Shown: positions 1 through 7,002, counted from the stretch's first letter. The stretch: DNA of 7,002 bases from a virus (IMGVR_UViG_2778261354_000001:1-7002), one strand, 5' to 3'. Made by a program: numbers and translations. The notes: a model not told the origin generated them from the sequence alone.

Positions 1-50
1 CGAACTGCTCCCCTGGCGCGTAGCACTGCCGACTGAATAACACATCCCCG

Positions 51-77
51 TCAATACGGTTCTTGCTGCACGCTTAC
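51..77. repeat. Left copy of a bipartite inverted repeat: TCAATACGGTTCT (51-63), 7-nt spacer TGCTGCA (64-70), CGCTTAC (71-77)
   Basis: Read directly from the sequence. The reverse complement of 6926-6952 is TCAATACGGTTCT-GACGAGT-CGCTTAC, so 20 of 20 arm positions match and only the 7-nt spacer differs. The copy lies in apparently non-coding DNA upstream of the HNH gene. Confidence 0.8.
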
Positions 78-108
78 TTCTATAGTGTCCAGTAAATCAA
101 ACAGGAAA

Positions 109-130
109 CTTGTCCAACGTGTTGGACAAG
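109..130. promoter_or_regulatory. Perfect dyad symmetry element CTTGTCCAAC-GT-GTTGGACAAG (10-bp arms, 2-nt centre), a candidate operator or activator site upstream of the HNH/late gene block
   Basis: Read directly: 109-118 is the exact reverse complement of 121-130. It contains TGT(111-113)-N12-ACA(126-128). It sits about 120 nt upstream of the HNH start. No T-run follows, so it is not an intrinsic terminator. Confidence 0.45.
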
Positions 131-250
131 CCTCTCCATTAGTGAGTTGTATTGATCACAACTCTACAAAGAATTCATTACTGGGTAGATGAAAATAGTT
201 TCACTATGAATGGAGGAGGCTATGTCGGTGGCTTCTTCATTGGAGTACAT

Positions 251-601
251 ATGCCCCCACGAATCCCACGCGCCTGCCGTAAGCGTGGATGTGCAGGTAC
301 AACCACAGACAGTTCTGGTTACTGCGATAAACATCGTGGCGAAGGATGGGTACAGCATCAACGCGGACTGAGCCGCCACCAGCGTGGCTATGGCTCGAAA
401 TGGGATGCCATACGTGCGCGCATACTGAAGCGTGATAATCATTTGTGTCAGAACTGCCTGCGCAATGGGAGAGCCGTTGAAGCCAGAACTGTGGACCACA
501 TCATTCCGAAAGCTCATGGTGGCACGGATGCAGACAGTAACCTGCAGAGTCTGTGCTGGCCCTGTCATAAAGCAAAAACAGCGCGCGAACGCATCAATTG
601 A
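251..601 (+). CDS. HNH homing-type endonuclease, phage packaging-associated
   Basis: Part of track ORF 152..601. The translation from ATG 251 (MPPRIPRACRKRGC...) carries Cys pairs (CRKRGC, CQNC, CWPC) and the HNH core: DHIIPKAHGG (His), SNLQ (Asn), CHKAKT (His). A GGAG at 242-245 lies 5 nt upstream of ATG 251. Alternative in-frame starts are ATG 206 and TTG 152. Its position immediately upstream of terS is typical of HK97-like cos phages. Confidence 0.85.
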   Translation: MPPRIPRACRKRGCAGTTTDSSGYCDKHRGEGWVQHQRGLSRHQRGYGSKWDAIRARILKRDNHLCQNCLRNGRAVEARTVDHIIPKAHGGTDADSNLQSLCWPCHKAKTARERIN

Positions 602-748
602 TAACAGTTCCCATCTGTAGGGGAGGGGCAGGTCAAATCTCTGCAACCCTGGCTGCTCAGTACCGCCGCCTGACCTTTCCTCGCATCGCCGCAGGTTCGA
701 AAACTTTTTTTTGGAATGTGATTAAATGATTGATAGGTAAAACCGATT
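602..748. other. HNH-terS intergenic region; putative cos / terminase recognition region
   Basis: A 147-bp non-coding gap with GC-rich tracts (GGGGAGGGGCAGGTC at 620-634; ACCGCCGCCTGACCT at about 662-676) and a T8 run at 705-712. The assignment is positional: in HK97-like cos phages the cos site lies between the HNH gene and terS. The exact cleavage site cannot be determined from sequence alone. Confidence 0.35.
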
Positions 749-1231
749 ATGTCTGGACCCCCGAAAACCCCGCCACGCCTGCATTTGATACGAGGTAACC
801 CCTCAAAGCGGCCAGTTAAAGACTCCAAAAAAACCGCTAAAAAGGATGAAAAAGGTCTCCCTAAAATTCCGCAACATTTAGGGGCGCAGGGGAAGTACTG
901 GTTCAGGCGAATGGCGGAAGAGCTGAATGCGGAAGGGATCATTTCTCAGCTCGATGCACGTGCGCTCGAGTTACTGGTGGAAGCCTACACCGAATACCGG
1001 CATCACTGCGAAATACTCGATGTTGAGGGTTATACCTACCGCACGGAAACGCAGAATGGCGATGTGCTGATCAAGGCACACCCGGCTGCTGCGATGAAGG
1101 CTGATGCCTGGAAGCGGATTCGGGCGATGCTTGCAGAGTTTGGTATGTCACCGGCAAGCCGGGCGAAAGTAAATACCGCCGGACCGGATGATGTTGATCC
1201 GCTGGCAGAGCTTTTAAAAGCGAGAGACTGA
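749..1231 (+). CDS. terS: Terminase small subunit, P27 family
   Basis: Track ORF 749..1231 (160 aa). It has a basic, Pro/Lys-rich N-terminus (MSGPPKTPPRLHLIRGNPSKRP...) followed by a helical region (GKYWFRRMAEELNAEGI...), which is characteristic of P27-type small terminases. Its TGA stop overlaps the terL ATG (TGATG at 1229-1233). Confidence 0.85.
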   Translation: MSGPPKTPPRLHLIRGNPSKRPVKDSKKTAKKDEKGLPKIPQHLGAQGKYWFRRMAEELNAEGIISQLDARALELLVEAYTEYRHHCEILDVEGYTYRTETQNGDVLIKAHPAAAMKADAWKRIRAMLAEFGMSPASRAKVNTAGPDDVDPLAELLKARD

Positions 1232-2988
1232 TGGCAAAAGTGGCTGACGGGATCCGCTACGCCGAACGTGTTGTTGCAGGAGAAATTGTTGCTGGCGAAT
1301 TTGTCCGTCTGGCCTGCCAGCGTTTTCTTGATGATCTGAAGTACGGCGAAGAGCGGGGGATTTATTTCAGTGAACCCCGTGCACAGCACATCCTTAATTT
1401 CTACAAATTTGTACCCCATGTGAAAGGGGCGCTGGCAGGTCAGCCCATTGAGTTGATGGACTGGCATGTGTTTATCCTCATTAATATTTTTGGTTTTGTC
1501 ATTCCGCTGGTGAATGAAGAAACCGGGGAAGTTGTCATGCGCAGCGATGGCAGTGGACGCCCGGTGATGGTGCGCCGGTTCCGGACAGCATACAACGAAG
1601 TTGCCCGTAAAAACGCAAAATCAACCCTGTCATCGGGTATCGGTCTGTATATGACGGGGGCAGATGGTGAAGGCGGGGCTGAGGTGTATTCAGCCGCAAC
1701 CACGCGTGACCAGGCCAGAATTGTGTTTGAAGACGCCAAAAATATGGTCAGAAAAGCCCGGTCGACACTCGGGCGGTTGTTTGATTTCAACAAGCTGGCG
1801 ATTTACCAGGAGCAGAGCGCATCAAAATTTGAACCGCTTTCCTCGGATGCAAACAACCTGGACGGTCTGAACATCCACTGCGCCATTATTGATGAGCTGC
1901 ATGCTCATAAAACCCGTGACGTGTGGGACGTTCTGGAAACGGCAACCGGTGCCCGTCTGCAGTCTCTGTTATTTGGCATCACCACGGCTGGCTTTAACAA
2001 GGAAGGGATTTGCTACGAGCAGCGCGATTACGCCATTAAGGTATTGCGAGGCTATAACAGCGACGTGGAGGGCGCGGTAAAAGACGACTCCTACTTTGCG
2101 ATCATTTACACGCTCGATGAGGGAGATGATCCGTTTGATGAAACGGTCTGGCAGAAAGCGAATCCTGGCCTGGGCATCTGTAAACGCTGGGATGATCTGC
2201 GTCGTCTGGCGAAAAAAGCGAAGGAGCAGGTCTCTGCGCGGGTGAATTTTTTTACCAAACACATGAATGTGTGGGTCACTGCCGAATCTGCCTGGATGGA
2301 TATGATTAAGTGGGAGAAGTGCGAATACATTGCTCCACAACATGAGCTGAAAACATATCCCATGTGGGTCGGCGTCGACCTTGCTCATAAGATTGATATC
2401 TGTGCGGCGGCAAAACTCTGGCGAACCGATAACGGACATGTTCATGCTGATTTTAAATTCTGGCTTCCGGAAGGACGGCTGGAACGATGCTCGCGGCAGC
2501 AGGCAGAACTTTACCGGAAGTGGGCGGAGATGGATAAGCTCATCCTGACGGATGGTGATGTTATCGATCATGCTCAGATAAAAAGTGACTTACTGGAATG
2601 GATTGGCGGTGAAAACCTCAGGGAACTGGGGTTTGACCCGTGGAGCGCAATGCAGTTCAGCCTGGCACTGGCTGAAGAAGGGATACCGCTGGTGGAGGTT
2701 CCGCAGACGGTCCGCAATCTGTCAGAGGCCATGAAGGAAACGGAATCACTGGTTTATGCCGGGCGTTTCCATCACAGCAATCATCCGGTCATGAACTGGA
2801 TGATGTCTAACGTTACTGTAAAACCGGACAAAAACGACAACATCTTCCCGAATAAATCCACGCCGGAAGCCAAAATCGACGGCCCTGTTGCGCTTTTTAC
2901 AGCCATGAGCCGCTTTCTGGTAAATGGCGGGGGCGTGAATGACTTTCTGTCCACGCTTGATCCTGATGAGGACCTGTTAATTCTGTGA
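1231..2988 (+). CDS. terL: Terminase large subunit (ATPase plus RNase H-like nuclease)
   Basis: Track ORF 1231..2988 (585 aa). The P-loop region is VARKNAKSTLSSGIGLY, Walker B is CAIIDELH, followed by GAEVYSAATTRDQARIVF; the C-terminal nuclease region contains VGVDLAHKID. The start is translationally coupled to terS. Confidence 0.95.
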   Translation: MAKVADGIRYAERVVAGEIVAGEFVRLACQRFLDDLKYGEERGIYFSEPRAQHILNFYKFVPHVKGALAGQPIELMDWHVFILINIFGFVIPLVNEETGEVVMRSDGSGRPVMVRRFRTAYNEVARKNAKSTLSSGIGLYMTGADGEGGAEVYSAATTRDQARIVFEDAKNMVRKARSTLGRLFDFNKLAIYQEQSASKFEPLSSDANNLDGLNIHCAIIDELHAHKTRDVWDVLETATGARLQSLLFGITTAGFNKEGICYEQRDYAIKVLRGYNSDVEGAVKDDSYFAIIYTLDEGDDPFDETVWQKANPGLGICKRWDDLRRLAKKAKEQVSARVNFFTKHMNVWVTAESAWMDMIKWEKCEYIAPQHELKTYPMWVGVDLAHKIDICAAAKLWRTDNGHVHADFKFWLPEGRLERCSRQQAELYRKWAEMDKLILTDGDVIDHAQIKSDLLEWIGGENLRELGFDPWSAMQFSLALAEEGIPLVEVPQTVRNLSEAMKETESLVYAGRFHHSNHPVMNWMMSNVTVKPDKNDNIFPNKSTPEAKIDGPVALFTAMSRFLVNGGGVNDFLSTLDPDEDLLIL

Positions 2989-3146
2989 AACAGCTTATTA
3001 CTGATATGACCGGGCTGATCGGTTTCGGTCTGCTCACTGCTGGCGTTTATCTGTATGCAGGTCTGCCAGCGTCTCTGATGCTGTCTGGCTGTTTGTTGCT
3101 GCTTTATGCACTGGTGGTGTCCATGAGGAGAAAACATGCTTCTTGA
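2985..3146 (+). CDS. Small hydrophobic protein (about 53 aa from GTG 2985, or about 46 aa from ATG 3006), predicted membrane protein, hypothetical
   Basis: Not in the ORF track. My own translation is (V/M)KQLITDMTGLIGFGLLTAGVYLYAGLPASLMLSGCLLLLYALVVSMRRKHAS*, with two hydrophobic stretches and a basic C-terminus. It is rich in CTG codons. The GTG start overlaps the terL stop (GTGA), and its stop at 3144-3146 overlaps the portal start at 3136. It fills the otherwise unexplained terL-portal gap. Confidence 0.4.
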   Translation: MKQLITDMTGLIGFGLLTAGVYLYAGLPASLMLSGCLLLLYALVVSMRRKHAS

Positions 3147-4362
3147 TGCTCTGTTTCGCAGTGAGCCTCTGGAAAATCCCTCGGTTCCGGTAACCGGAGA
3201 GGCTGCTGAGACGGATAATATTTTTGCCCGGGATGTGTATGTCAGTCCGGAAACATCCATGAAGCTGGCTGCTGTCTATGCCTGTATTTATGTTATTTCA
3301 TCCAGTGTGGCTCAGATGCCCCTGCATGTGATGCGAAAAACGAATGAGCATGTTCAGCCTGCACGCGATCATCCGTTGTTCTGGCTCGTTCATGATGAAC
3401 CGAATGCCTGGCAGACCAGCTATAAGTGGCGGGAACTGAAGCAGCGTCATGTGCTGGGGTGGGGCAATGGTTATACGTGGGTAAAACGTAATCGTCGTGG
3501 AGAGGTTACCAGCCTTGAATGCTGTATGCCATGGGAAACTACGTTACTTAACACCGGTGGGCGTCATACTTACGGGGTGTATAACGAAGAGGGTGCATTT
3601 GCGGTAAGTCCGGACGACATGATCCATATCAGGGCGCTGGGAAACAATCAGAAAATGGGACTGAGCCCGATCATGCAGCATGCTGAAACCATTGGTATGG
3701 GAATGAGTGGCCAGCAGTATACCAGCGCCTTTTTTAACGGTAATGCCCGTCCTGCCGGTATTATTTCTGTGAAAAATGAACTGAACGAACAAAGCTGGGG
3801 CAGGCTTAAAAATATGTGGCAGCGGGCGGTGACAGCGCTTCGCAGCCAGGAAAATAAAACCATGTTGCTGCCTGCGCAACTGGATTACCGCGCTCTGACA
3901 GTTTCTCCGGTGGATGCTCAGATCATTGATATGACCAAGCTGAACCGGTCGATGATTGCCGGGATTTTTAATGTCCCGGCGCACATGATTAATGACCTGG
4001 AAAAAGCCACATTTTCGAATATTACGCAGCAGGCGATTCAGTTTGTTCGCTACACGATGATGCCCTGGGTTGCGAACTGGGAGCAGGAGCTTAACCGTCG
4101 CCTGTTTACCCGTACAGAACGGGCTGCCGGGTATTACGTTCGTTTCAACCTCACGGGGTTGCTCCGTGGGACCCCACAGGAGCGTGCGCAGTTCTATCAC
4201 TTTGCCATTACAGATGGCTGGATGAGTCGGAATGAAGCCAGGGCATTTGAGGATATGAACCCGGTTGACGGTCTGGATGAAATGCTGGTCAGCGTAAATG
4301 CAGCAAATCCGTTGAATAACTTTAAAGATACGAAAGGCAAAGAGGAAAAGAACGATGAATGA
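3136..4362 (+). CDS. Portal protein, HK97 family
   Basis: Track ORF 3136..4362 (408 aa). Its size, position immediately after terL, and sequence character (e.g. ...NRSMIAGIFNVPAHMINDLEKATFSNITQQAIQFVRYTMMPW...) fit HK97-type portals. A GAGGAG at 3125-3130 lies 5 nt upstream of the ATG. Confidence 0.93.
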   Translation: MLLDALFRSEPLENPSVPVTGEAAETDNIFARDVYVSPETSMKLAAVYACIYVISSSVAQMPLHVMRKTNEHVQPARDHPLFWLVHDEPNAWQTSYKWRELKQRHVLGWGNGYTWVKRNRRGEVTSLECCMPWETTLLNTGGRHTYGVYNEEGAFAVSPDDMIHIRALGNNQKMGLSPIMQHAETIGMGMSGQQYTSAFFNGNARPAGIISVKNELNEQSWGRLKNMWQRAVTALRSQENKTMLLPAQLDYRALTVSPVDAQIIDMTKLNRSMIAGIFNVPAHMINDLEKATFSNITQQAIQFVRYTMMPWVANWEQELNRRLFTRTERAAGYYVRFNLTGLLRGTPQERAQFYHFAITDGWMSRNEARAFEDMNPVDGLDEMLVSVNAANPLNNFKDTKGKEEKNDE

Positions 4363-4954
4363 CCGTGAAACGCGCTGTTACAGCGGGGAGGTGCGGGCGG
4401 AACAATATGATAATGCCCCGACCCACATTCTGGGGTATGGCTCGGTATTTAACAGTCGTTCAGAACCTCTGTGGGGATTTCGTGAAATCATCAAGCCGGG
4501 GGCTTTTGATGATGTACTGAATGATGATGTACGTGGCTTGTTTAATCATGATCCTAATTTCATTCTCGGACGAAGTTCTGCCGGCACGTTGTCATTGTCG
4601 GTGGATGAACGCGGTTTACGTTATGACATTGTTGCACCGGATACTCCGACTATTTGTGACCTGGTGCTGTCTCCAATGTTGCGTGGTGACATTAATCAGT
4701 CCTCGTTCGCGTTTCGTGTCGCCCGTGACGGAGAGAGCTGGTATGAAGACGACGAGGGGATTGTTATCCGGGAAATCACGCGCATTTCTCGTCTGTATGA
4801 CGTCAGCCCGGTGACATATCCGGCCTATCAGGACGCAGACTCTGGTGTCCGCTCAATGAAAGCCTGGCAGGAAGCGCGGGCGAGTGGTGCGCTGAAGAAA
4901 GCTGTTAACGAACGAATGGCGCGTGAGCGTCTTTTGACCCTTCTTAATGCATAA
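4355..4954 (+). CDS. Prohead maturation serine protease, HK97 family (S78/U35-type)
   Basis: Track ORF 4355..4954 (199 aa). It carries the HK97-protease-like motifs LFNHD (candidate catalytic His) and GDINQSSFAF (candidate catalytic Ser). It overlaps the portal stop by 8 nt (ATGAATGA) and sits directly upstream of the capsid gene. Confidence 0.92.
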   Translation: MNDRETRCYSGEVRAEQYDNAPTHILGYGSVFNSRSEPLWGFREIIKPGAFDDVLNDDVRGLFNHDPNFILGRSSAGTLSLSVDERGLRYDIVAPDTPTICDLVLSPMLRGDINQSSFAFRVARDGESWYEDDEGIVIREITRISRLYDVSPVTYPAYQDADSGVRSMKAWQEARASGALKKAVNERMARERLLTLLNA

Positions 4955-4968
4955 GGATACTACTGACG

Positions 4969-6186
4969 ATGAAACTTCATGAGATGAAGCAAAAACGAAA
5001 CACCATTGCAAAGGATATGCGTGCACTGCATGAAAAAATTGGTGATAACGCATGGACTGATGAGCAACGGGCAGAGTGGAACAGGGCGAAAGCTGAGCTG
5101 GATGCGCTGGATGAGCAAATCGCCCGTGAAGAAGAGTTGCGCCGTCAGGATCAGGCATATGTGGATGAGTCCGGGCCGGAAGAGCGCCAGAATAATGAGG
5201 CGGAGAACGGGAAAAAGGCGGTGGAAGAGAAGCGTGCTGCGGCATTTAACCGTTTTCTGCGTGCCGGATTTGCAGAACTGAATGCTGAAGAGCGTAATCT
5301 GATGCGTGAACTGCGGGCTCAGAGTGTAACAACGGATTCTCAGGGCGGATATACGGTGCCCACGCAGATGCGTAACAAAATCATTGACACCATGAAGGCT
5401 TATGGCGGGATTGCCAGTGTGGCGCAACTTCTGACCACATCAACCGGGCAGGATATCACCTGGTCAACGTCTGATGGCACGACTGAAGAGGGCGAACTGC
5501 TGGCGGAAAATACAGCCGCAACGGAACAGGATGTGACGTTCGGGACCGCTATTCTGGGGGCTAAAAAGCTGTCATCAAAAATAATTCGTGTGTCCAATGA
5601 GCTGCTCCAGGACAGTGGGGTGGATATTGAATCTTATCTGGCAAACCGTATTGCCCAGCGTATTGGTCGTGGAGAGGCAAAATATCTGGTTCAGGGGACC
5701 GGAACGGGATCACCGTTACAGCCAAAAGGGCTGGCAGCGTCGGTGACGGGAACCATCCAGACTGCAGCCTCTGCCGCTTTCACCTGGAAAGAAATGAATG
5801 CCCTGAAACATGCCATTGATCCGGCATATCGTGGTGGGCCGAAATACCGCTGGGCATTCAATGATGCCACATTGCAGACTATTGAAGAGATGGAGGATGG
5901 ACAGAAACGCCCGTTATGGCTGCCGGATATTGCAGGCGGTACGCCGGCTACTGTGCTGGGGATCCCTTATGTTATTGATCAGGCTATTGACGGGATTGGT
6001 ACCGGAAAAAAATTCATTTTCCTGGGGGATTTCAACCGCTTTATCATTCGCCGCGTTACTTATATGGAACTGAAACGTCTGGTTGAGCGTTATGCTGAGT
6101 TTGATCAGGTGGCATTTCTGGCTTTCCATCGTTTTGACTGTGTGCTGGAAGATGTGGCAGCCATCAAGGCGCTCACTGGCAAATAA
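4969..6186 (+). CDS. Major capsid protein, HK97 fold, with N-terminal delta (scaffolding) domain
   Basis: Track ORF 4969..6186 (405 aa). The N-terminal ~100 aa are highly charged and coiled-coil-like (delta domain), followed by a typical HK97-type body (GGYTVPTQ..., ...LWLPDIAGG...). An AAGGA at 4953-4957 precedes the ATG. The gene follows the protease as in HK97. Confidence 0.95.
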   Translation: MKLHEMKQKRNTIAKDMRALHEKIGDNAWTDEQRAEWNRAKAELDALDEQIAREEELRRQDQAYVDESGPEERQNNEAENGKKAVEEKRAAAFNRFLRAGFAELNAEERNLMRELRAQSVTTDSQGGYTVPTQMRNKIIDTMKAYGGIASVAQLLTTSTGQDITWSTSDGTTEEGELLAENTAATEQDVTFGTAILGAKKLSSKIIRVSNELLQDSGVDIESYLANRIAQRIGRGEAKYLVQGTGTGSPLQPKGLAASVTGTIQTAASAAFTWKEMNALKHAIDPAYRGGPKYRWAFNDATLQTIEEMEDGQKRPLWLPDIAGGTPATVLGIPYVIDQAIDGIGTGKKFIFLGDFNRFIIRRVTYMELKRLVERYAEFDQVAFLAFHRFDCVLEDVAAIKALTGK

Positions 6187-6207
6187 CCACTCGTTGTTCA
6201 GTTACAG

Positions 6208-6229
6208 ACCGCGCCGACGCGGTTTTTTT
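6208..6229 (+). terminator. Rho-independent terminator downstream of the capsid gene
   Basis: Stem ACCGCG (6208-6213) / CGCGGT (6218-6223) with loop CCGA, followed by a T7 run at 6223-6229. It begins 22 nt after the capsid stop codon. Confidence 0.6.
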
Positions 6230-6231
6230 AT

Positions 6232-6251
6232 GCCCGCACAGTGTTGCGGGC
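6232..6251 (+). promoter_or_regulatory. Second hairpin (7-bp stem GCCCGCA/TGCGGGC, 6-nt loop) abutting the ribosome-binding site of the connector gene
   Basis: Read directly: 6232-6238 is the reverse complement of 6245-6251. The 3' stem base C6251 is the first base of the CAGGAG Shine-Dalgarno (6251-6256) for ATG 6263. Confidence 0.4.
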
Positions 6252-6262
6252 AGGAGTTTCTG

Positions 6263-6580
6263 ATGGCAGCAATAGTGGAAAAACTCAGGGCGCAGTGCCG
6301 TATTGATACAGATGATGCAACTGATGATGAGTTACTGATGCTGTATTTCCGGGCTGCCTGCCGCAAGGCAGAAAATTTTATCAACCGTAAGCTTTATGAG
6401 GAGACGGTGCCGGAAGGTGATCCTGAAGGGGTGCTTATAGCTGATGATGTTTTGCTGGCGCTCATGTTGCTGGTCGGGCACTGGTACGAAAACCGGGAAA
6501 ATTCCTCAGATGTCAGCAAGGCACCAGTCCCGTTTGGTTTTTCTTCTCTGCTGGAGCCTTATCGTTTTATTCCTTTGTAG
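6263..6580 (+). CDS. Head-tail connector protein (gp6-like)
   Basis: This is the in-frame 3' part of track ORF 6083..6580. The ATG at 6263 is preceded by CAGGAG at 6251-6256 and lies downstream of the terminator. The 105-aa product (MAAIVEKLRAQCRIDTDDATDDELLMLYFRAACRKAENFINRKLYEE...) has the acidic N-terminal region typical of gp6-like connectors. The track's upstream extension would span the terminator and is rejected. Confidence 0.8.
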   Translation: MAAIVEKLRAQCRIDTDDATDDELLMLYFRAACRKAENFINRKLYEETVPEGDPEGVLIADDVLLALMLLVGHWYENRENSSDVSKAPVPFGFSSLLEPYRFIPL

Positions 6581-6588
6581 GAGGAGGC

Positions 6589-7002
6589 ATGCAGGCGGGC
6601 AGATTACGTGATCGCGTAATTATTCTGAATGTCACCACCGCCCGCTCTCCGTCAGGGCATCCGGTGGAGACGGTGACGGAGGGAGCTACCGTATGGGCAG
6701 AAGTTAAGGGTATCAGCGGGAGGGAGATAATCTCAGGCGGAGCAGAAACCGCTCAGGCTACGGTCAGAGTCTGGATGAGATTCCGGCGAGATGTAACAGC
6801 AACTTCATGTCTAAAAGTGCTGACCGGTGCATTTAAAGGGGCCATTCTGGGTATAGAAGGTCCACCAATACCGGATGCACGCGCTACCCGGCTTGAAATA
6901 CTCTGCAGCCTGAAGGGGAATGTGTGTAAGCGACTCGTCAGAACCGTATTGATATTTACTGAGAGCTCAGATCAACTTTCCAGGGCAACAGATCGCGTAC
7001 CC
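6589..7002 (+). CDS. Head closure / head-tail joining protein (HK97 gp9/SPP1 gp16-like); 3' end not reached within the window
   Basis: Not in the ORF track because there is no stop codon in the window. GGAGGAGG at 6581-6588 precedes ATG 6589. My translation is MQAGRLRDRVIILNVTTARSPSGHPVETVTEGATVWAEVKGISGREIISGGAETAQATVRVWMRFRRDVTATSCLKVLTGAFKGAILGIEGPPIPDARATRLEILCSLKGNVCKRLVRTVLIFTESSDQLSRATDRV..., which follows the head-closure family pattern. The frame stays open to position 7002. Confidence 0.7.
   Translation, partial: MQAGRLRDRVIILNVTTARSPSGHPVETVTEGATVWAEVKGISGREIISGGAETAQATVRVWMRFRRDVTATSCLKVLTGAFKGAILGIEGPPIPDARATRLEILCSLKGNVCKRLVRTVLIFTESSDQLSRATDRVP
6926..6952. repeat. Right copy of the bipartite inverted repeat: GTAAGCG (6926-6932), 7-nt spacer ACTCGTC (6933-6939), AGAACCGTATTGA (6940-6952)
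   Basis: Read directly: this is the reverse-complement partner of 51-77, with 13/13 and 7/7 arm identity and a different spacer. It lies within the open reading frame of the head-closure gene, at roughly codons 113-121. Confidence 0.8.

Follow-up and report, generated by a model that had tools for sequence, protein, structure and literature searches.

The DNA analysed here, IMGVR_UViG_2778261354_000001:1-7002, is a viral sequence of 7,002 nucleotides (referred to below, at its full length, as the window) that carries a compact array of head-morphogenesis and DNA-packaging genes. We conclude, with a probability of roughly 0.93, that positions 78-6925 are the head-morphogenesis and packaging block of a widespread Escherichia coli lambdoid prophage, with an HK97-type head and a lambda-type tail, that has been interrupted twice by insertion sequences (ISs) of the IS66 family. 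The head module itself is ordinary and very common, and it is already annotated and known. The initial annotation had set two origins side by side, a prophage late region or a capsid-forming phage-inducible chromosomal island (cf-PICI), and had proposed that the flanking DNA be inspected. Carried out on relatives of the window, this inspection places tail genes downstream and lysis genes upstream of the module, in strain EC32 as well as in other contexts, which is the arrangement that the annotation itself had named as the mark of an ordinary prophage. The prophage origin is thus retained, and the satellite origin is given up.

Genomic context of the head module

A megablast search of the window against 5,426 complete E. 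coli genomes recovered at least 80% of its length in 621 genomes, and nearly all of the matches span exactly positions 77-6926. In strain EC32 the identity is 100% over 77-6926, and in the annotation of that genome the module is part of a lambdoid prophage, about 41 kb long, with rspB on one side and ydfJ on the other (NZ_CP085619.1, 2.40-2.44 Mb). Judged from the gene names dicB, ydfA-D, hokD, rrrQ, tfaQ and pinQ, this site is the Qin locus of K-12. The first part of the EC32 prophage contains int, xis, an exonuclease gene, cI/cro-type regulators, replication genes, RusA and an antiterminator (Q); a holin, a lysozyme, Rz1 and iss (bor) lie directly upstream of the head module. Directly downstream follow an HK97-gp10-like gene, a gp17 tail-completion gene, an Ig-domain tail tube, the G/T chaperones, the tape measure, M, L, K, I, J, Lom, a tail fibre and a fibre-assembly gene.

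The same arrangement recurs well beyond EC32. In 896 genomes the segment from the 3' end of the capsid gene through the tape-measure gene is unbroken, and all 1019 matches to it are chromosomal. Among the non-redundant contexts that encode exactly the same HNH protein, nine of ten keep the order lysis-head-tail, the tenth being a terS::lom deletion remnant; likewise, gp10/gp17 genes stand directly 3' of the head-closure gene in 32 of 32 IMG/VR loci with this capsid. Phage Evi (LR597642, 40,019 bp) has a copy of the module that is 98% identical, together with tail and lysis genes. More generally, the Qin-locus-type lambdoid prophages of E. coli, represented by EC32 and the phages Evi, PhiR49_2 (PV340570) and vB_EcoS-813R8 (ON470619), have 98-100% nucleotide identity to the window over 78-6925 and share its gene order, including a small open reading frame (ORF) of 53 codons. 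These four records lack, at the sites in question, the two IS66-family insertions of the window, which has also lost the stop codon of the head-closure gene, as described below. From the genomes that use the same capsid protein, the capsid would be sized for DNA of 40 kb. Two shorter 'phage' records, of 11 kb and 18 kb (ON470600 and ON470621), were considered as satellites and rejected, being partial pieces of lambdoid prophages with tail and lysis genes. In the deletion remnant mentioned above (locus L098, 10499-11242), terS is fused in frame to a gene of the Ail/Lom family and the region from terL to J is lost.

IS66-family ends and the bracketing inverted repeat

The initial annotation had reported an inverted repeat bracketing the module and had counted it among the features for which the choice between prophage and satellite deserved attention. 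The repeat is real, with arms of 27 nt at 51-77 and 6926-6952 that are 78% complementary, the left arm reading ...CGCTTAC and the right arm GTAAGCG...; its arms, however, turn out to be the terminal repeats of two IS66-family elements and do not point to a satellite. On the left, positions 35-77 are identical over 43 nt to the right end of an annotated ISEc22-family element in strain PRO_A-1028-6W-A (locus L002), and the remainder of 1-77 differs from that copy by a single C within a run of Cs. The final 12 residues of the transposase, with the stop, are encoded by bases 2-40 (ELLPWRVALPTE*), and the element ends ...CGCTTAC at 77. The EC32 prophage (locus L001) is identical to the window from its position 20002, which corresponds to 78, whereas its upstream sequence differs from window 1-76. 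The 8 bp that adjoin this IS (TTCTATAG) would be the target-site duplication expected if the left IS is a simple insertion, by analogy with the ISEc22 copy of PRO_A-1028-6W-A.

On the right, positions 6926-6966 are identical over all 41 nt to the boundary, on the transposase-proximal side, of an ISCro1-family element annotated in NZ_CP116188.1 (locus L003). This IS starts with GTAAGCG at 6926, and the minus strand from 7000 to 6956 encodes a transposase C-terminus (VRDLLPWKVDLSSQ; ...DLLPWKVDLSSQ*) followed by a TAA stop codon. Both ends have the features of the family, namely terminal repeats beginning GTAAGCG and a transposase gene ending near the right end. They belong to two different IS66-family members that point in opposite directions and turn their transposase-proximal ends toward the head module, and the sequence between them is collinear to the base with the intact prophage. 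The possibility that one IS in a circular molecule gave both ends was rejected, as the adjacent 8-mers differ (TTCTATAG versus GAATGTGT) and the ends come from different elements. Owing to the right-hand insertion, the stop codon TGA of the head-closure gene (6925-6927 in the intact prophage) has become TGT in the window, and the frame reads on to the end of the window.

In PRO_A-1028-6W-A an ISEc22 copy sits at the identical bond, 6925/6926, flanked by the 8-bp duplication GAATGTGT (L002, 21840-21860 and 24297-24312). The same bond, in the overlap of the head-closure stop and the gp10 start, has thus been entered by two different IS66-family elements, ISCro1-like in the window and ISEc22 in that strain, which hints at a preferred target site or at strong selection at the junction. 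Other relatives (NZ_CP116188.1; NZ_CP025913.1, locus L004; and locus L097) are rich in ISs at various sites: an IS21-family element beside rusA, IS2 in a DUF1327 gene, ISEc62 after the capsid gene, and IS66-family copies in the head-closure gene, in gp10 and in the holin region, with one locus also carrying, among its tail-fibre genes, a group II intron and pieces of IS629. This prophage element seems to be a frequent target of ISs.

Why the module appears self-contained

The two IS-derived parts of the window, 1-77 and 6926-7002, are exactly 77 nt each, and 7002 is an unusual length for the window. When a de Bruijn-graph assembler works at k=77, a contig of unique sequence comes to its end k bases inside the repeat on either side. 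Very likely, then, the window is an entire short-read contig bounded by repeats in an assembly at k=77; the boundaries are technical because the contig stops 77 nt into each repeat, and the head kit stands alone in the window because the contig stops at IS copies on both sides. What the boundaries show is two IS insertions in a prophage, and not the end of an element. The exact left junction is absent from the 5,426 complete E. coli genomes, IMG/VR, the JGI metagenome contigs and the GTDB representative genomes; the exact right junction is absent from the same sets, with a different IS at the same site in only one E. coli strain. For genome scans this calls for caution: a head and packaging block on a short contig that ends at ISs mimics a capsid-forming satellite, and a satellite call requires the flanks, with integrase, regulator and primase present and lysis and tail genes absent.

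State of the interrupted copy and alternative readings

In the source strain, an ISEc22-like copy would occupy the spacer between iss and the HNH gene, with its end at 77, and an ISCro1-like copy would occupy the junction of the head-closure gene and gp10, from 6926. The sizes of the two copies, judged from those in L002 and L003, are about 2.5 and 2.7 kb. Such insertions would separate the head genes from the late-promoter side and from the tail genes, so that the late operon would be broken twice; the head-closure protein would gain a C-terminal extension; and some 5 kb would be added between successive cos sites of an element of about 41 kb, whose free-living relatives measure 40-41 kb. Because of the extension, the interruptions of the operon and the extra DNA between cos sites, the prophage copy of the source strain is probably defective.

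Several points weigh against the reading of an ordinary, twice-interrupted prophage. The window's own flanks are unread, and tail and lysis genes are ascribed to the source strain from its relatives; an IS-mediated deletion or rearrangement could have removed them. The function of the predicted cos site and of the Ala-containing Walker A motif, both treated below, is taken from sequence, that of the motif from conservation alone.

It is accordingly conceivable, although we consider it unlikely, that the module is a decaying remnant, in which an IS-mediated deletion took the tail and/or lysis genes and left a cryptic, head-only fragment. Two IS copies are substrates for such deletions, and deletion remnants of this prophage exist, such as the terS-lom fusion of L098, in which the head-tail region is gone; moreover, the related Qin element of K-12 at the same locus is, judging from its gene names, cryptic. 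However, the window has all eight genes intact, at 100% identity to their counterparts in a complete prophage, which argues for recent insertions and not for long decay, and prophage genes continue beyond each IS in four of the four IS-carrying relatives examined (H1, H2, H4 and L097).

Little can be said for a composite transposon or an IS-translocated segment, that is, for an IS66 pair that with its 6.85-kb head module now lies apart from the prophage. IS66-family ends do adjoin the module on both sides, the left junction occurs in no complete genome, and there are IS-rich relatives with many independent IS insertions. A composite transposon, however, has two copies of the same IS around its cargo and a single duplication around the whole unit, and here the ends come from different family members, ISEc22-like and ISCro1-like, whose inner ends agree at no more than 78% over 27 nt. 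The clean IS boundaries with perfect collinearity between them are what two simple insertions would give, and the exact 77-nt IS parts point to an assembly break and not to a biological end. Nor was the module seen a second time elsewhere, all 1019 capsid-to-tape-measure matches being chromosomal. We hold this reading to be very improbable.

A further proposal is that the IS-bracketed module, although severed from the expression of tail genes, is still inducible and makes DNA-filled, tail-less heads that are finished by the tails of a co-resident lambdoid phage, or that the IS66 pair moves the module as a unit. We would be surprised if either were the case; if true, a prophage that makes tail-less heads would be in transit toward a lifestyle of 'tail piracy' like that of the cf-PICIs.

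Comparison with capsid-forming satellites

By published criteria, cf-PICIs are 10-18 kb long and have an integrase together with regulation (alpA/merR-type) and replication modules and an exclusive packaging module, and they possess neither lysis genes nor a complete tail module, which SatelliteFinder (PMC10085698) treats as 'forbidden components'. A module of this kind would make its own small capsids, package only itself and borrow the tails of a helper phage. In favour of such an origin, the gene set of the window is the set listed for cf-PICI packaging modules. We located the cf-PICI prototype, EcCIEDL933, as an element of 14.4 kb between roxA and phoQ (NZ_CP008957.1, 1,680,329-1,694,760; locus L089, 5330-19761). 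It encodes a DUF927 primase and an alpA-like regulator besides int, is devoid of lysis and tail genes, and has the same protein families as all eight genes of the window, the P27-family small terminase subunit (TerS) included. Its spacer between the HNH gene and terS carries a cos-like motif similar to that of the window, which likewise speaks for a satellite.

In EcCIEDL933, however, the gene order is capsid-protease-portal-closure-connector-HNH-terS-terL, which differs from that of the window, and the proteins are only 22-40% identical to those of the window, with the head-closure protein unmatched (Table 1). EcCIEDL933 forms T=4 capsids, whereas the capsid protein of the window is encoded by phage genomes of 40-41 kb. 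The distance of the window proteins to EcCIEDL933 is similar to their distance to HK97: the HNH protein is 40% identical to the former and 37% identical to HK97 gp74, and for the capsid protein, with one satellite compared, the values are 22% versus 24%. For the large terminase subunit (TerL), they are 32% (272 bits) versus 28% (142 bits). The higher TerL score against the satellite could be counted in favour of a cf-PICI, as could the Ala-containing Walker A motif that the two TerLs have in common; it appears to reflect a shared broad TerL/P27-TerS lineage and not membership.

The contexts of the module point the same way. All TerL relatives at 99-100% identity whose surroundings were inspected lie in prophages, and in none of the relative loci examined does a block of integrase, alpA/merR-type regulator and primase-replicase adjoin the module. 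As to size and gene blocks, the relatives are lambdoid elements of about 40 kb in which int/xis/exo go together with regulators of the cI/cro type, a replisome organiser and Q; as to the components that a cf-PICI lacks, the module in these relatives stands next to holin, lysozyme and Rz genes and to a complete set of tail genes. Since every examined context of identical or nearly identical DNA is a lambdoid prophage of the 40-kb class with lysis genes and a full tail, or a fragment or deletion remnant of one, we give a cf-PICI origin next to no credence.

The Walker A motif of the large terminase subunit

The initial annotation had pointed to a non-canonical P-loop in TerL as its other ground for raising the satellite question. 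The deviation is real: residues 124-131, encoded at 1600-1623, read VARKNAKS where HK97 TerL has IARKNGKT. The window TerL matches the HK97 TerL structure 6Z6D with an E value of 1.3e-35, and ARKNAKS aligns with ARKNGKT. A census of the motif nevertheless removes its meaning as a sign of decay or of satellite origin. Of the 120 nearest TerL clusters, at 72-100% identity, 119 have ARKNAKS; they come from Escherichia, Salmonella, Serratia, Yersinia, Klebsiella, Proteus, Xenorhabdus, Hamiltonella and others, so that Ala is the norm in this TerL clade. Among 150 more distant representatives, mostly at 37-61% identity, the motif was readable in 123, with Gly in 79, Ala in 37 and Ser in three; that is, about 30% of the more distant TerLs have an Ala-containing Walker A motif. 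The TerL of EcCIEDL933 reads PRKNAKS and has the same Ala-Lys-Ser ending. On this record of conservation the replacement of Gly by Ala is a normal variant that is conserved in the clade and frequent in the wider family, and it has no diagnostic value because it is present in both prophage and satellite TerLs.

Several database proteins (P0003, P0070, P0077-P0079 and P0086) join the first 450-570 or so residues of this TerL to domains of tail tips or fibres, DUF1983 and Phage-tail_3 among them. They are probably the products of similar internal deletions, or of misassemblies, in other strains.

Comparison with HK97 and the predicted cos region

The head and packaging module of HK97 (gp74 HNH, cos and gp1-gp7) has the gene order and the Pfam families of the window, with the HNH gene beside cos. 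The two have a cos-proximal motif in common, and in both the capsid protein has an N-terminal extension and there is no separate scaffold gene. The proteins of the window are about 24-37% identical to their HK97 counterparts, except that similarity of the TerS proteins is undetectable; in addition, HK97 has no counterpart to the small ORF between terL and the portal gene, and, as described above, its TerL has ARKNGKT in place of ARKNAKS. In sequence the capsid protein is nearer to that of the Rhodobacter capsulatus gene transfer agent (RcGTA) than to HK97 gp5: its closest solved relative is the RcGTA capsid 6TBA, with an E value of 9.5e-22, whereas HK97 gp5 (1OHG) reaches only 2e-4.

Window positions 609-670 align just inside the right end of the HK97 virion DNA (GGGG.GGGG..TCAAATCT ... 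ACCGCCGCC). The score of this local alignment is 43, against 19.6 +/- 3.6 (maximum 35) in 200 shuffles, or about 6 standard deviations above them, and the right end of the virion DNA of HK97 falls at about 673/674 of the window. The cos cut is therefore predicted close to 673/674, with about 75 nt between it and the terS gene downstream, a placement like that in HK97, in which the HNH protein is needed for cos cleavage by the terminase (PMC9410871).

The working of the module can be outlined from family membership and from the HK97 literature, on which all of the following steps depend. As in HK97 (PMC9410871), TerS would bind cos between the HNH gene and terS, TerL together with the HNH protein would cut there, and the TerL ATPase would drive some 40 kb of DNA by way of the portal into a prohead. 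The capsid protein that forms this prohead would bring a scaffolding domain with it at its N-terminus, to be taken off by the S78 protease; the gp6-like connector and the gp7-like head-closure protein would then seal the head and make it ready for the joining of a tail. Tail joining would need gp10, gp17 and the tail genes, which in every intact relative lie just past the window.

Gene content and other features of the window

ORF and Pfam scans found HNH, TerS, TerL, portal, S78 protease, capsid, connector and head-closure genes in the HK97 order as an array on the single + strand (Table 1). The eight genes named in the initial annotation are thus all present, on that strand and in the places given there, each above its curated Pfam cut-off. 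The added claim that the window contains nothing else needs four corrections, namely the IS66-family ends, the 53-codon ORF, the cos region and the lost stop codon.

Table 1. Positions of genes and other features in the window, with amino acid identities to EcCIEDL933
Feature	Position	Strand	Basis	Identity to EcCIEDL933
Transposase-proximal (IRR) end of ISEc22-like IS66-family element	1-77	+	exact 43-nt match at 35-77	
TTCTATAG, 8 bp adjoining left IS	78-85	none	collinearity with intact prophage resumes here	
HNH endonuclease, HK97 gp74 counterpart	251-601	+	PF01844, E 1.9e-16	40%
Predicted HK97-type cos region (GGGGAGGGGCAGGTCAAATCT ... TACCGCCGCCTGA)	609-673	none	local alignment to HK97 right end	
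Small terminase subunit (TerS), P27/Terminase_4 family	749-1231	+	PF05119, E 1.7e-25	28%
Large terminase subunit (TerL), ATPase and nuclease	1231-2988	+	PF03354 and PF20441	32%
Small hydrophobic protein, conserved 53-codon ORF	2985-3146	+	ORF list	
Portal protein	3136-4362	+	PF04860, E 3.3e-100	31%
HK97-family (S78) prohead maturation protease	4355-4954	+	PF04586, E 1.6e-40	37%
Major capsid protein, HK97 fold, 405 aa	4969-6186	+	PF05065 over residues 126-403, E 2e-70	22%
Terminator-like hairpin and T-run just 3' of capsid gene	6206-6233	+	terminator scan	
gp6-like head-tail connector (adaptor)	6263-6580	+	PF05135, E 6.7e-14; coordinates from EC32 prophage	27%
Head-closure (gp7-like) gene, all 112 codons kept	6589-6925	+	PF05521, E 8.4e-20	no significant match
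GAATGTGT, 8 bp adjoining right IS	6918-6925	none	comparison with L001 and L002	
Transposase-proximal end of ISCro1-like IS66-family element, inverted orientation	6926-7002	-	exact 41-nt match	

The 53-codon ORF (MKQLITDMTGLIGFGLLTAGVYLYAGLPASLMLSGCLLLLYALVVSMRRKHAS) overlaps the terL stop and the portal start and encodes a very hydrophobic product, for which the Pfam scan gave no match; in the relatives examined, a hypothetical protein or an unnamed gene call stands at the same place. The N-terminal part of the capsid protein, about 125 charged residues outside the PF05065 domain, is presumably the delta/scaffolding domain.

The G+C content is about 0.51 across the whole window. No tRNA genes were found in it, and a comparison with Rfam gave no match at the gathering threshold. 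Other direct and inverted repeats in the window were taken as chance, being short, imperfect, two-copy and within coding sequence. Promoter predictions were fewer than in shuffled sequence (three sites versus 6.2), and terminator predictions were about equal (seven versus 5.9). A 13-pair hairpin at 105-134 (core CTTGTCCAAC..GTTGGACAAG) in the spacer between iss and the HNH gene is terminator-like on the minus strand, and the left IS lies 28 nt upstream of it. The hairpin at 6206-6233 occupies the same position as the putative terminator that the HK97 annotation places after gene 5.

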